Positions 24,305 through 29,079 of a stretch of DNA of 37,301 nt are shown here, piece by piece. A program made the position numbers and the translations under genes. This DNA comes from Candidatus Falkowbacteria bacterium RIFOXYC2_FULL_48_21. GTDB lineage: Bacteria > Patescibacteriota > Patescibacteriia > UBA11705 > JABHMO01. Positions within the stretch are counted from its first letter, which is position 1, and each line of letters opens with the position of its first letter. The DNA lies in assembly GCA_001778275.1 (NCBI GenBank), contig MFGM01000074.1, positions 14,814 to 52,114 on the forward strand, read 5' to 3'. Below the pieces are notes generated by a model. It worked only from the letters and a program-made list of their open reading frames with translations. It searched no databases and was not told the origin of the DNA.

Positions 24305-26872
24305 ATGCAAAATTTCAATATGCGTATTGCGATCGATACTTTGGCCGTCAATCGGGACGACTTCGGCGGCGGAGAACAGTATCTCGCCAATTTAGTTTCT
24401 GCCTTGTCAGACATTGACAAACAAAATCAATATTACATTTTTGTTTGTCCACAAAATAAAGAAAAATTCGACTTGACGCGCCCCAATATAAAAATGATAG
24501 AATGCGCAGTTGATAATCGATATAAAATTAGACGTATCCTTTTTGAACAATTTTGTTTGCCGCGCTTGCTGAAGGCATATCAAATCGATATTTATCATGG
24601 CCCGAATAACACTTTACCATTATGGCTACCATGCCCGGCCGTCGTGACGATTCAATTTATGATCAATTTTATTTCCCCAACGCAGTTCAAACCGTTTTAC
24701 AAGCGTTGGTATTTCAATTTATTAATGAAGCGGTCTGTCCGTAAGGCGGACACGGTCATCGCGGTTTCGGAAAGTTTAGCAAAAGAAATTAACGGTCTGC
24801 TCGGCGTTGATTTTAAAAAAATACGGGTGGTACATCACGGCGTATCCAGCCAATTCTGCCAGCGGAAGGAACCGGGGGAGGCCGATAAACTGCGGCATGA
24901 TTTTAATATTACCCGACCGTATATCCTTTGTGTGGCCAACAACGTTTCGAATAAAAATTATTGCGGCTTAATCCACGCTTTCGCCAAATTAAAATCGGCG
25001 CATCAAATACCACATCAACTGATTTTCGTTGGCTCGACGGATATCGACCCGGTCGAAAAAGCCAAAACGTTAAACGTTATAGCGGCACTGCCGCAATCGA
25101 TATCGGCCGATATTTTATTTTTGGGCTTTATTAAGCACGGGGAACTGCCGAGTCTGTACCGCGGTGCCGCCGTATTTGCCTTACCTTCTTTTTGCGAATC
25201 ATTTGGTATTCCGCTCGTGGAAGCCATGGCTTGTGGCGCGCCGATTGTTACTTCCAATGTTTCCGTCATGCCGGAAATTATCAGAAACGCCGGATTAAAA
25301 GTTGATCCTAAAAATCCATCCGCAATCGCTGAAGCAATTTATTCGATTATCAGCAATGAAACGCTACGGCGCAGATTGTCCGATCGAGCCGTTCACCGTG
25401 CGCAATCATTCACCTGGCAAAACGCGGCGGAAAAAACTTTGTCTGTATATTCGGAAATATTCGCAACAGCAATTTCAACCGAGCCGCAAAAAAAACAACG
25501 GGGTGTTTTATTTATAAATCCGCCACGCGAAGTTCCGCAACGCGTTGATTATCCGCCTCTTGGTCTGGCGTATCTTGCGGCATATTTAAAACAAAATAAT
25601 ATCAAAGCCAGCGTCCTTGATGCCGCAGGCATGACGTGGAAACAATTGGTAGCTGCCGTCAAAAAACGCCAGCCTTATATCGTCGGCTTGCCCTGCTGGA
25701 CAGTGGAAAGAGAACAAACGTTCATGGCCGCCAAGCTGGTCAAGTCGTTTATTCCTGACGTCAAATTGATTTTTGGCGGGCATCATGCCACAGTTTTTCC
25801 CGCACAAATGTTTCGTCTAGCTGATGCCGATGCGGTCGTACTCGGAGAAGGTGAGCTGACCACGTTAGAGTTGGTAACATCGTTGTTGGATAATGCTCCG
25901 TTGGCCGGAATAAAGGGCATCGCCTATCGTGAAGCGGGCAATATTGTGATTACCGAACCAAGAGAATTTATCTCTGATTTGGACACAATTCCTTTTCCGA
26001 GCTATGATGATTTTAATTTGGATGACTATCTCGGATTACCGGAAACAACGAGAAAATCAGCGGCGCTGATGACTTCCCGCGGTTGTCCCTACGCTTGTGT
26101 CTATTGTGCCGCGTCAAAATTTTGGAAACGACAATGGCGCGCACGTTCGGCGCAAAACGTTTTAGCGGAAATTGATTATTTGTATCGCACCCACGGCGTT
26201 AGGGCGCTGATGTTTTTTGATGATAATTTTACGATCCGGAAAGATCGCGTAATTGATATTTGCCACGGTATCATTAAACGCCAACTGGACGTTATTTGGG
26301 CCGCTTGCTCTCATGTAAATCAAATTGACGCCGAAATGTTGGATTGGATGAAAAAGGCCGGTTGCTATCGGATTGATTTCGGCGTGGAATCTGGTAGTCC
26401 CGAAGTATTAAAGAATATCAAAAAAAATCAAACCACCGCCAAGGTTGAGGAAACCTTTCGATTATGCCATGAGGCGGGGATCAAGCCGCGAGCTTATTTG
26501 ATGGTTGGTAATCCGGGCGAAAACGATAAAACAATAGACGAAACAATTGCACTGTTAACTAAAATTAAACCGCATGATACCATAAGCGGGCAAATTCTGT
26601 GGATTTTGCCGGGCACGGAAATATATGACATCGCCAAGGCCAAAGGAATTATTTCCGATGACTATTGGTTGAAAAACGATAAATTCATCCCTTATTATAC
26701 GGGCGAGCATACGGAAAAAGAATTAAAAAAATTGCGTGATAAATTAACCCATGGCACAACTAAAATTGATAAAAAATTTACCGCTTATTTAAGTTATTTG
26801 ATCCGAAAAATATATTATCGGTTTCCGGTACTACAAAAGGCGCGCGCTCTTAAAAAAAGATTCAAAATCTAA
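24305..26872 (+). CDS. Fusion protein: GT4 (GT-B fold) glycosyltransferase plus cobalamin-binding-domain (class B) radical SAM enzyme
   Basis: 855 aa; an alternative start is ATG 24320 (MRIAIDTLAV). The GT4 part extends to about aa 385 (FALPSFCESFGIPLVEAMACGAPIVTSNVSVMPEII). The linker is ATAISTEPQKKQRG. The B12-like Rossmann part reads GVLFINPP...PPLGLAYLAAYLKQNNIKASVLDA...KLIFGGHHATVFP. The radical SAM CxxxCxxC is CPYACVYC at nt 26084-26107, followed by FFDDNF and IDFGVESGS. Confidence 0.85.
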   Translation: MQNFNMRIAIDTLAVNRDDFGGGEQYLANLVSALSDIDKQNQYYIFVCPQNKEKFDLTRPNIKMIECAVDNRYKIRRILFEQFCLPRLLKAYQIDIYHGPNNTLPLWLPCPAVVTIQFMINFISPTQFKPFYKRWYFNLLMKRSVRKADTVIAVSESLAKEINGLLGVDFKKIRVVHHGVSSQFCQRKEPGEADKLRHDFNITRPYILCVANNVSNKNYCGLIHAFAKLKSAHQIPHQLIFVGSTDIDPVEKAKTLNVIAALPQSISADILFLGFIKHGELPSLYRGAAVFALPSFCESFGIPLVEAMACGAPIVTSNVSVMPEIIRNAGLKVDPKNPSAIAEAIYSIISNETLRRRLSDRAVHRAQSFTWQNAAEKTLSVYSEIFATAISTEPQKKQRGVLFINPPREVPQRVDYPPLGLAYLAAYLKQNNIKASVLDAAGMTWKQLVAAVKKRQPYIVGLPCWTVEREQTFMAAKLVKSFIPDVKLIFGGHHATVFPAQMFRLADADAVVLGEGELTTLELVTSLLDNAPLAGIKGIAYREAGNIVITEPREFISDLDTIPFPSYDDFNLDDYLGLPETTRKSAALMTSRGCPYACVYCAASKFWKRQWRARSAQNVLAEIDYLYRTHGVRALMFFDDNFTIRKDRVIDICHGIIKRQLDVIWAACSHVNQIDAEMLDWMKKAGCYRIDFGVESGSPEVLKNIKKNQTTAKVEETFRLCHEAGIKPRAYLMVGNPGENDKTIDETIALLTKIKPHDTISGQILWILPGTEIYDIAKAKGIISDDYWLKNDKFIPYYTGEHTEKELKKLRDKLTHGTTKIDKKFTAYLSYLIRKIYYRFPVLQKARALKKRFKI

Positions 26873-26883
26873 TATACGGAAAT

Positions 26884-28362: not shown

Positions 28363-28371
28363 CAACTGACT

Positions 28372-29079
28372 ATGTTAAGCGAAAAAAAGGTACAATTTTT
28401 TTTCGACGCTTCCGCCACGCGCTGGAGTGATAATTATGGTCACACTAGAAAAATGAATTATCGGGTCGACCAATTTCTCAACGCGTTAAAAAGTCGATTG
28501 CGCGCGAATGATGCAGTGCTTGATTTTGGTTGCGGCACAGGGGAAGTCACCGGCTCAATCGCGGCGGCCGGGTTTGCAATTACCGGATGTGATTTGTCAT
28601 CCGAAATGATAAAAAAGGCCAATACGAAATATCAATCCGCCGGCTTAAATTTCTTGGCGCTGCAAGAAGATTTTTTGCCGCGATTGCCTTTTTTGTCAAA
28701 AAAATTCAGGGCGATTATTTCTTCCAGCGTTTTTGAATATCTGCCAGCACTTGACGAATATTTCCTTGAGATGAAACGTTTGCTCTTGGATGATGGTTAC
28801 TTAATTTTTACCGTACCAAACAGCAAACATCCGATTCGAAAAATTGAAAAAATATTATTCTACTTGAACAGGTATTGTTTTTTCTCTTGGTTGTTCGAGC
28901 AGGCGTTTCAAATTACCAAACGCCGGATTGACTTTAACTATCTTGAGATTTCCATCAATCGTTTTTCAACAAACGAATGGCTTAGGCGACTAGCCGCCAA
29001 CGGTTTCGACATGGAAGAAATCAGCGCAACAAAAACGCCATTGTTATTAATTGTGGCTAAAAATAGAAGCACACTGTAA
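28372..29079 (+). CDS. Class I SAM-dependent methyltransferase
   Basis: 235 aa. Motifs: VLDFGCGTGEVTGSI (motif I), GCDLSSEMI, FRAIISSSVFEYL, GYLIFTVPN. Confidence 0.8.
   Translation: MLSEKKVQFFFDASATRWSDNYGHTRKMNYRVDQFLNALKSRLRANDAVLDFGCGTGEVTGSIAAAGFAITGCDLSSEMIKKANTKYQSAGLNFLALQEDFLPRLPFLSKKFRAIISSSVFEYLPALDEYFLEMKRLLLDDGYLIFTVPNSKHPIRKIEKILFYLNRYCFFSWLFEQAFQITKRRIDFNYLEISINRFSTNEWLRRLAANGFDMEEISATKTPLLLIVAKNRSTL

Follow-up and report, generated by a model that had tools for sequence, protein, structure and literature searches.

Can radical chemistry be built into the assembly of a bacterial surface glycan? This question is raised by a 37,301-nucleotide (nt) stretch of DNA, hereafter the window, from Candidatus Falkowbacteria RIFOXYC2_FULL_48_21, a metagenome-assembled genome (MAG) of the Candidate Phyla Radiation (CPR; Patescibacteria) from the Rifle aquifer. 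One open reading frame (ORF) of this window joins a GT4 glycosyltransferase (GT) to a B12-binding domain and a radical S-adenosylmethionine (SAM) core, and is followed by a free-standing B12-binding radical SAM gene (rSAM2) and a methyltransferase gene. An original prediction, made from the sequence alone, had proposed that the radical half acts on the sugar or lipid-linked intermediate handled by the GT. We found that the fused frame is the rare fused form of a widespread, normally unfused gene pair, in which a B12-binding radical SAM (B12-rSAM) gene follows a GT4 gene within polysaccharide loci. The radical SAM module probably acts on the glycan pathway together with the GT, and C-methylation is a possible but tentative assignment for its chemistry.

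Architecture and authenticity of the fused frame

The ORF (table 1) has no internal stop and corresponds to a single protein in the NCBI record, OGF34312.1. Its true start is probably M6 (ATG at nt 24320), giving a protein of 850 amino acids (aa), because every homolog begins with MRIA or MKIA; MRIAIDTLAV occupies residues 6–15. A profile hidden Markov model search placed all of the expected domains above their Pfam gathering scores: PF13439 (Glyco_transf_4, residues 20–181, 70 bits), PF00534 (Glycos_transf_1, residues 198–362, 114 bits), PF02310 (B12-binding, residues 415–523, 65.8 bits against a cutoff of 32.1), and PF04055 (Radical_SAM, residues 590–751, 97.9 bits). The uninterrupted 855-codon frame described in the original prediction was thus confirmed, and its motif positions, linker borders, and gene spacings were reproduced on recomputation.

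The N-terminal half has the features of a retaining GT4 enzyme of the GT-B fold, namely the two Pfam domains, an EX7E-spaced glutamate pair (E298 and E306 in ESFGIPLVE, nt 25196–25222), and the fold itself; both glutamates are invariant in alignment A1, and residues 301–317 read GIPLVEAMACGAPIVTS. Foldseek matched this half to BshA, MshA, and GlgM (TM score 0.79–0.83), and the same fold, glutamate pair, and domain combination are found in these enzymes and in PimB' and WaaG, at ~20% identity. Following the linker, the Rossmann domain contains PPLGLAYLAAYLKQNNIKASVLDA (residues 417–440) and FGGHHATVFP (residues 490–499), and its motifs PPLGLAY, P-C-W-T-V-E-R (25691–25711), and GGHHAT (25772–25801) are kept throughout the family. 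The cluster motif C594-x3-C598-x2-C601 (CPYACVYC) lies at nt 26084–26107, and its cysteines are invariant in both A1 and a second alignment, A3. In A3 (26 sequences), the cluster cysteines, GGHHAT, P-x-(I/V)-(V/I)-G-x-x-C-W-T-x-E-R, SRGCP, and GVESGS are near- or fully invariant, suggesting that the radical SAM half has a conserved and specific function. The AlphaFold 2 (AF2) model of the fusion has a mean predicted local distance difference test (pLDDT) value of 89.7 with both halves confident. Foldseek matches of the C-terminal half include AprD4, MgmA/QCMT, TsrM, TokK, CysS, and OxsB, and no chain in the PDB covers both halves of the fusion.

The second gene starts 11 nt past the fusion and repeats the B12-binding plus radical SAM layout (PF02310, 82.4 bits against the same cutoff of 32.1; PF04055, 77 bits; CPYNCSYC at nt 27547–27570), and the methyltransferase gene starts 9 nt after it. 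Both the fusion and rSAM2 belong to the radical SAM superfamily by their CxxxCxxC motif and PF04055 match, in line with the predicted fold of the fusion, and both have the class B layout, with a PF02310 Rossmann domain ahead of the radical SAM core. The two are only 27% identical, and rSAM2 has its own ortholog family; its description as a paralog holds, as a distant but genuine one.

The fused frame is not an assembly artefact. The same open frame was found at 99.9% nucleotide identity in two further assemblies (L001 and L002). The junction also looks like a clean in-frame gene fusion, because standalone orthologs of the C-terminal half begin right after the linker, where their N-terminal M..(V/I)LLINPPRE aligns with KKQRGVLFINPPRE (VLFINPPRE) of the fusion.

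A strain variant was detected on two contigs, L090:3126-5693 (JGI 3300009031) and L091:3282-5286 (ENA ERZ909580), at 98.9% nucleotide identity. A T→A change at window position 26107 converts the third cysteine codon of CxxxCxxC (codon 601, 26105–26107) from TGT to TGA, and gene callers report the variant gene as two products, one of 600 aa (GT4+B12) and one of 220 aa (the rest). Selenocysteine or an alternative code was considered for this TGA and rejected: TGA ends 7 of the 29 window genes, and neither a selenocysteine insertion sequence (SECIS) nor any other Rfam family was matched. In this strain the radical SAM half seems to have been knocked out naturally and recently; it is also possible that the TGA is a sequencing error, since the two contigs may come from one sample.

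This variant is a reason to ask whether the fusion might instead be an artefact or a decaying gene (a frameshift, chimeric join, or pseudogene) without any coupled function, as is an aberrant end near residue 642 in the product P0300 (648 aa), and all of the sequences are metagenomic. We consider such an explanation very improbable, given that the NCBI record and two other assemblies contain the uninterrupted frame, that every catalytic motif is retained in both halves, and that the junction coincides with the N-terminus of the standalone orthologs. The break in the variant lies inside the radical SAM motif, away from the domain junction, and the changes beyond its stop are 14 synonymous to 4 nonsynonymous, which implies purifying selection there until recently.

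Gene order in ortholog loci and other fusions

The radical SAM half was searched on its own (C-terminal 460 residues), as a full-length query was swamped by GT4 word matches. An initial figure of ~36% identity for the nearest radical SAM relatives, obtained with the full-length query, was corrected in this way to 45–63%. Standalone B12-binding radical SAM proteins of ~455–466 aa make up a large family that includes the radical SAM half. Named members come from MAGs of Phycisphaerae, Omnitrophica, Desulfobacterales, Tepidanaerobacteraceae, and Heimdallarchaeota; a cultured organism with both an ortholog and a known glycan structure was sought and none was found among the named matches, all of which are MAGs.

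The genomic context of the family was surveyed in a metagenome scan of 80 loci, annotated by phmmer with the window proteins as queries. Orthologs were defined by a score of at least 380 bits (~41% identity or more) and counted if at least 1.2 kb of upstream DNA was available (n = 24). In 16 of these 24 orthologs, the next gene upstream, on the same strand, encodes a GT4 enzyme, which is the order of the fusion, and on this basis the fusion is a rare fused form of the gene pair. No fused copy was found in the 80 loci. Unfused GT4 and radical SAM genes do often stay adjacent, a point that the original prediction had listed for checking; a fusion does not recur in these loci, and the status of the window fusion as an isolated oddity gives way to that of a fused variant of a common arrangement.

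The closest ortholog, P0316 (63% identity), is located behind a GT4 gene on three contigs. Locus L105 is the unfused counterpart of the window and keeps its order: GT4, rSAM (674 bits), rSAM2 (575 bits), GT4_b, epimerase, WecC, and WecB. In the locus of P0319 (59%), the order is GT4, rSAM2 ortholog, a third B12-rSAM, ortholog of the fused half, GT4_b ortholog, epimerase, WecB, Bac_transf, and Wzy_C. Orthologs of rSAM2 (575–727 bits) share an operon with orthologs of the fused half in L097, L099, L100, and L105, and in L089 an rSAM2 ortholog (719 bits) stands beside a B12-rSAM of the third type. GT4_b orthologs commonly come after orthologs of the fused half, and of the 13 ortholog loci for which 4 kb or more of DNA was available past the ortholog, 6 have WecB on the downstream side.

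On the GT side, the nearest relative of the fused GT4, P0002 (47% identity), is a fusion too, with GT2 and a SPASM radical SAM domain, and two B12-rSAM genes come after it. In L089, L011, and L155, relatives of the fused GT4 lineage adjoin B12-rSAM genes (the GT4s of L011 and L155 score 191–196 bits). The GT4 genes adjacent to radical SAM relatives in L086 and L087 were tried as orthologs of the fused GT4 and rejected; that of L087 corresponds to the window GT4 at 32151.

The original prediction had named a homolog context that points to a known non-glycan substrate as an observation that would count against it. Orthologs of at least 41% identity lie consistently inside polysaccharide loci, and homologs at 30% identity or less (P0016 and P0031) occur in non-glycan contexts. 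The glycan association is therefore a property of the closer family and is lost at ≤30% identity.

An exhaustive search of 1.84 billion representatives with a profile of the fusion gave end-to-end matches in a single stretch for only two clusters, P0001 (the window protein) and P0144. The latter represents a clade of Vicinamibacterales-like Acidobacteria with GT4-B12-rSAM proteins of 879–920 aa, which have the same domain order and are 26–28% identical to the window protein. These genes lie behind a Wzy_C gene and ahead of genes for a SPASM-rSAM, a methyltransferase, a B12-rSAM, and another methyltransferase. This second fusion evidently arose independently, because neither of its halves is among the top relatives of the window's halves. 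We also asked whether the two groups share an orthologous module (membrane protein, fusion, 490-aa B12-rSAM, and 230-aa methyltransferase) and rejected this on pairwise comparison: identity between the rSAMs is 22–23%, the methyltransferases resemble each other only in a generic way, and the membrane proteins show no relationship.

Other close relatives of the radical SAM half are joined to glycan enzymes in different arrangements, including B12-rSAM-GT2-GT4 (P0023), B12-rSAM-class I MT (methyltransferase; P0147), MT-GT-B12-rSAM-MT-GT (P0289, 1860 aa, 36% identity), and B12-rSAM-MT-GT2-MT-GT2-B12-rSAM (P0175, 1879 aa). P0168 (2633 aa) and P0210 (1826 aa) have the architecture B12-rSAM-rSAM-DUF362-Fer4-GT4-TPR, in which DUF362 and Fer4 are a possible built-in electron donor. 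P0162 and P0163 (~2300 aa) were matched in five to seven stretches and apparently contain five to seven tandem B12-rSAM modules. Runs of four to five consecutive B12-rSAM genes in one operon, some with GT4 or GT2 neighbors, were seen in L064:5413-13649 (an Acidobacteriaceae MAG), L011 (a Syntrophobacteraceae MAG), L047, and L048.

The occurrence of GT4 upstream in 16 of 24 orthologs, together with several independent fusions to GT4, GT2, or methyltransferase domains, argues for a GT-coupled role in glycan synthesis, and it is this part of the original proposal that stands; a C-methyl-branched product and the use of cobalamin are putative.

Candidate chemistry of the radical SAM module

As a whole, the reading that we favor, and to which we give an even chance, is a soluble bifunctional enzyme of surface-polysaccharide synthesis, that is, a fused form of the GT4 and B12-rSAM pair kept by many uncultured anaerobes, with C-methylation of a sugar as its probable reaction. 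The GT4 domain would move a sugar from a nucleotide sugar onto a lipid-linked repeat unit on the cytoplasmic side, before export by Wzx. The C-terminal module would bind a [4Fe-4S] cluster through C594, C598, and C601, together with SAM and, by homology, a cobamide. Cleavage of SAM would generate a 5'-deoxyadenosyl radical that abstracts hydrogen from an unactivated carbon of the same or a neighboring sugar, and the methyl group of methyl-cobamide would then pass to this carbon. The product would be a C-methyl (branched) sugar; GenK, GenD1, and MoeK5 act in this way on antibiotic sugars. In such a pathway, rSAM2 would be a second radical enzyme for another position or residue, and the 235-aa class I methyltransferase would supply an ordinary O- or N-methyl group. 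The lipid-linked substrate, the cobamide, and the methyl transfer are the steps that we infer in this scheme.

Among known systems, the class B sugar-carbon methylases GenK and GenD1 (gentamicin), Fms7, and MoeK5 (moenomycin) are, together with HpnI/HpnJ of hopanoid synthesis, the nearest functional analogies (PMC9204698). As described, they have an N-terminal B12-type Rossmann domain and a CxxxCxxC core like the window family, and act on sugar carbons of glycosides built by GTs (PMC9204698). They are standalone enzymes of secondary-metabolite clusters, whereas the window enzyme is fused to GT4 in a Wzx-type surface-polysaccharide locus of a CPR bacterium. Moenomycin is a lipid-linked uronic-acid glycan, and the window locus is rich in uronic-acid functions (Ugd, WecB, and WecC-like). 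The methylase of the moenomycin pathway is MoeK5 (PMC9204698). The sugar-acting class B enzymes in two class reviews come from antibiotic, nucleoside-analogue, or hopanoid pathways (PMC12931638, PMC9204698). Neither these reviews (2026 and 2022, respectively) nor the open-access full-text literature that we searched contains a class B member fused to a GT or encoded in a polysaccharide locus, in agreement with the original prediction.

Several observations favor methyl transfer. The sugar-acting enzymes GenK, GenD1, Fms7, and MoeK5 perform single C-methylations (PMC9204698), and the Rossmann domain of the window family is a bona fide, strongly conserved PF02310 domain. The best PDB match of the family profile is OxsB (E-value 1.7e-28), across both the Rossmann and radical SAM domains; the cobalamin domains of TokK and CysS align with the profile as well, whereas AprD4 aligns over the core only. 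The family thus shares its two-domain layout with OxsB, TokK, CysS, TsrM, and MgmA/QCMT ("class I" B12-rSAM enzymes; Foldseek probability 1.0), from which it differs in being only 17–23% identical; these act on a nucleoside, a carbapenam, a peptide, or a protein, and none is fused to a GT. Radical methylases are reported to have a hydrophobic residue under the lower face of the corrin, the corresponding residue being polar in TsrM and OxsB (PMC12931638). At these positions, W465 (at least 90% conserved) aligns with N186 of OxsB and V467 with W76 of TokK; both residues are hydrophobic, which would fit a methylase only weakly. Cobamide binding by the family is proposed by homology.

A number of points weigh against this reading. 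Neither the fused radical SAM half nor rSAM2 reached the cutoff of any NCBIfam model, and the top-scoring models, BchE (TIGR02026; 197 bits for the fusion and 208 for rSAM2, cutoff 481) and HpnJ (TIGR03471; 174 and 186 bits, cutoff 577.6), describe nonmethylases, the C-methylase models KedN5 (90 bits, cutoff 700) and HpnR (72 bits, cutoff 650) scoring lower. The closest solved structure in single-sequence searches with the two radical SAM proteins was AprD4 (6FD2; E-values 5e-21 and 1e-23), which is also the closest fold match of the radical SAM half (TMt 0.73). The lower-face residues were mapped through sequence alignments of ~20% identity, which makes them a weak guide. In the AF2 model, the linker is disordered (pLDDT < 50 at model residues 388–392), the predicted TM score (pTM) is 0.65, and no fixed interdomain geometry is predicted; the active-site channel shared by GT and radical SAM halves that had been suggested thus receives no support. 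The GT4s upstream of orthologs fall into at least three lineages, each 20–26% identical to the fused GT4, so the coupling is to "a GT4" and not to one coevolving partner. The stop at Cys601 in the strain variant means that the radical SAM half may be dispensable. No Rfam family, and thus no cobalamin riboswitch, was detected in the window at threshold, and CPR bacteria are not known to make cobamides.

The main rival to methylation is a different radical reaction within the same pathway and with the same coupling to the GT: ring contraction (as by OxsB, or by HpnJ on bacteriohopanetetrol-glucosamine), 1,2-diol dehydration with subsequent reduction to a deoxy sugar, or epimerization, with the cobamide optional. 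BchE and HpnJ as best NCBIfam matches and AprD4 as best structural match point in this direction, and hopanoid synthesis offers a precedent, in which a GT sets a sugar on a lipid-linked acceptor and the class B enzyme HpnJ then remodels it (HpnI/HpnK/HpnJ; PMC9204698); HpnJ also colocalizes with MoeK5 and Fom3 in sequence networks (PMC9204698). Similarly, AprD4, which acts with AprD3 as a 1,2-diol dehydratase in the apramycin pathway, has an aminoglycoside-sugar substrate and an N-terminal Rossmann-like domain. That a related Rossmann domain need not hold cobalamin is seen from AprD4 and ArsL-type proteins (PMC12931638). A candidate AprD3-like reductase exists too, in the form of a bi-domain oxidoreductase (ADH_zinc_N and GFO_IDH_MocA) that is located near the fusion in the window and after radical SAM orthologs in L086 (665 bits), L102 (443 bits), and L121 (529 bits), but it is missing from most ortholog loci. 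All of the relevant scores are far under the family cutoffs, and the window has no hopanoid genes by Pfam annotation. HpnI is a GT2 enzyme and unfused, and the ring contraction by HpnJ is not a methylation. AprD4 binds no cobalamin (PMC12931638) and aligns with the window family over the core only, the strongly conserved Rossmann domain of the latter aligning with true cobalamin binders; where OxsB has N186, the family has a conserved Trp in place of a polar residue. On balance, we regard a nonmethylating reaction as rather unlikely.

Specific assignments to named enzymes were also tried. Identity with BchE, implied by JGI labels on homologs, is an over-annotation, with scores far under the TIGR02026 cutoff; identity with HpnJ was rejected, as the TIGR03471 cutoff is not reached and hopanoid genes are lacking, and so was membership in the AprD4-type diol dehydratases (NF033070, 87 and 103 bits, cutoff 500) or in any curated class B C-methylase family. 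P-methylase models gave 155–163 bits against cutoffs of 575–600 (PhpK, 155 against 600), and a C-methyltransferase model for ribosomally synthesized and posttranslationally modified peptides (RiPPs) gave 119 against 282. With no NCBIfam model reaching its cutoff, the family forms, by its profile scores, a class B radical SAM branch without a name of its own.

It might further be argued that the substrate of the radical SAM module is not a glycan at all (a polyprenyl carrier, a membrane lipid, or a protein or peptide), the GT adjacency and fusion reflecting coregulation only. The superfamily does contain modifiers of lipids (the ladderane model, 152 bits against a cutoff of 360; HpnP/HpnR) and of peptides (ApyD, 164 bits against 750), the lineage of the upstream GT4 varies, and the distant relatives P0016 and P0031 lie in non-glycan contexts. 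We find this explanation improbable, since the closer orthologs are consistently in polysaccharide loci, no precursor-peptide or lipid-synthesis genes were annotated by Pfam in the window, and independent covalent fusions to GT4, GT2, and methyltransferase domains are hard to square with coregulation alone.

Returning to the favored scheme in its broader form, a widespread, uncharacterized, and putatively cobamide-dependent rSAM family, normally encoded right after a GT4 gene and here fused to it, may modify lipid-linked surface-glycan intermediates by radical chemistry to give C-methyl, C-branched, or rearranged sugars; we would place this general proposal somewhat below even. If true, uncultured anaerobic bacteria and archaea would tailor their envelope glycans in a manner that defines a new class, and surface-glycan synthesis in a genome-reduced CPR bacterium would depend on cobamides scavenged from the community or host, with a bearing on the ways in which such episymbionts rely on the organisms around them. 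Should C-alkylation or sugar rearrangement be correct, a new type of sugar would be expected in envelope glycans, with a bearing on phage and host recognition and on glycan analytics. There is good support for a coupling to glycan assembly, and the fusion serves as a "Rosetta stone" that ties a radical enzyme to a specific GT step (donor, acceptor, and modification) in one polypeptide; it is a useful handle on a common but unstudied gene pair and not a singular oddity. Hundreds of close homologs in surface-polysaccharide loci across phyla offer an entry point to class B radical SAM enzymes outside antibiotic, nucleoside-analogue, and hopanoid pathways.

The enclosing polysaccharide locus

The fusion is part of a polysaccharide locus of ~36 kb encoded on one strand (table 1). 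The first part of this locus contains two UDP-sugar dehydrogenases (Ugd and a second one), a Bac_transf priming transferase, Gmd, an Fcl-like protein, Wzx, a DegT aminotransferase, and GT2. At least five methyltransferases, a pyruvyl transferase with an FrhB-like partner, three Glyco_trans_1_2 proteins, 472- and 623-aa proteins with multiple transmembrane (TM) segments, and DUF1616 make up the middle, and the last part consists of the fusion, rSAM2, the methyltransferase, the bi-domain oxidoreductase, a C5-epimerase-like protein, GT4_b, WecB, DUF218, and a weak Wzz. With its priming transferase (Bac_transf, 218 bits) and flippase (Polysacc_synt_3, 231 bits), the locus has the priming and export functions of a Wzx/Wzy-dependent heteropolysaccharide locus; the Wzz-like protein scores 23.3 bits, below the cutoff of 25.5, and a Pfam search of the window gave no Wzy_C match. 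The 235-aa methyltransferase reached no NCBIfam cutoff.

Table 1. Positions of the fused gene, its domains, and neighboring features in the window
Feature	Position	Strand	Evidence or record
Fusion ORF, 855 codons: GT4, linker, B12-binding, and radical SAM	24305..26872	+	ORF listing, Pfam; NCBI OGF34312.1, "hypothetical protein A2482_00780"
GT4 domain (GT-B fold, retaining-type), residues 6–386	24320..25462	+	PF13439, PF00534, Foldseek
Polar linker ATAISTEPQKKQRG, the fusion junction, 14 residues (387–400)	25463..25504	+	Alignment with standalone orthologs
B12-binding-type Rossmann domain, residues 401–523	25505..25873	+	PF02310, conservation in A3
Radical SAM core, residues 590–751	26072..26557	+	PF04055
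C-terminal helical extension of the radical SAM module	26558..26872	+	AF2 model; kept in the standalone family (…PGTEIYD…DDYWL…YYTGEH…)
rSAM2, free-standing B12-binding and radical SAM, 492 aa	26884..28362	+	Pfam; OGF34313.1, "hypothetical protein"
Class I SAM-dependent methyltransferase, 235 aa	28372..29079	+	Methyltransf_23/11/25; OGF34314.1, "hypothetical protein"
Bi-domain oxidoreductase, 716 aa, ADH_zinc_N and GFO_IDH_MocA	29083..31233	+	Pfam
C5-epimerase-C-terminus-like protein, 325 aa	31223..32200	+	PF06662, 173 bits
Second GT4 glycosyltransferase, GT4_b	32151..33392	+	
UDP-GlcNAc 2-epimerase WecB	33389..34474	+	PF02350, 369 bits
Two membrane proteins directly 5' of the fusion: 623 aa, ~12–14 predicted TM (UniRef "RgtA/B/C/D-like", GT-C-like), and small DUF1616 (23836–24282)	21989..24282	+	
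Enclosing polysaccharide locus, ~36 kb, one strand	280..36275	+	Pfam

The genes at window positions 29083–34474 form a recurring cassette that accompanies the B12-rSAM family in L086, L087, L102, and L121 and contains the bi-domain oxidoreductase (~716–726 aa), the C5-epimerase-like protein, GT4, and WecB. In L086 and L087, standalone radical SAM relatives have an ortholog of the C5-epimerase-like protein directly 5' of them. The product of this cassette is possibly a residue derived from N-acetylmannosamine or its uronic acid (ManNAc(A)), or a C5-epimerized uronic acid residue.

The 623-aa protein (21989–23860) and the 472-aa protein (13646–15064; ~10–11 TM) have no Pfam match even at an E-value of 5 and are the only candidates in the locus for a Wzy polymerase or a GT-C-type transferase. 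In L108, a gene downstream of a radical SAM ortholog encodes a homolog (82 bits) of the 472-aa protein. In an 825-aa protein (11194–13671), ~8 TM segments are predicted within residues 1–375; an unassigned stretch follows, and then a C-terminal domain of the class I methyltransferase type (residues 621–766), which looks membrane-anchored. At 17063–19694, a polysaccharide pyruvyl transferase gene is followed by an end-overlapping gene for an FrhB/FdhB-like protein with 4Fe-4S ferredoxin motifs, which could be a low-potential electron source for the radical SAM enzymes.

Four mechanical ORFs of 84–161 aa, at 23715–24200 (+), 25015–25269 (−), 26961–27386 (−), and 27487–27909 (−), lie over annotated genes, have no support, and are probably spurious. 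The GC content is fairly even along the locus (~0.40–0.48). CPR genomes are typically ~1 Mb in size, and at least 36 kb of one strand is given here to a single, heavily methylated glycan pathway that includes two putative cobamide-dependent enzymes.

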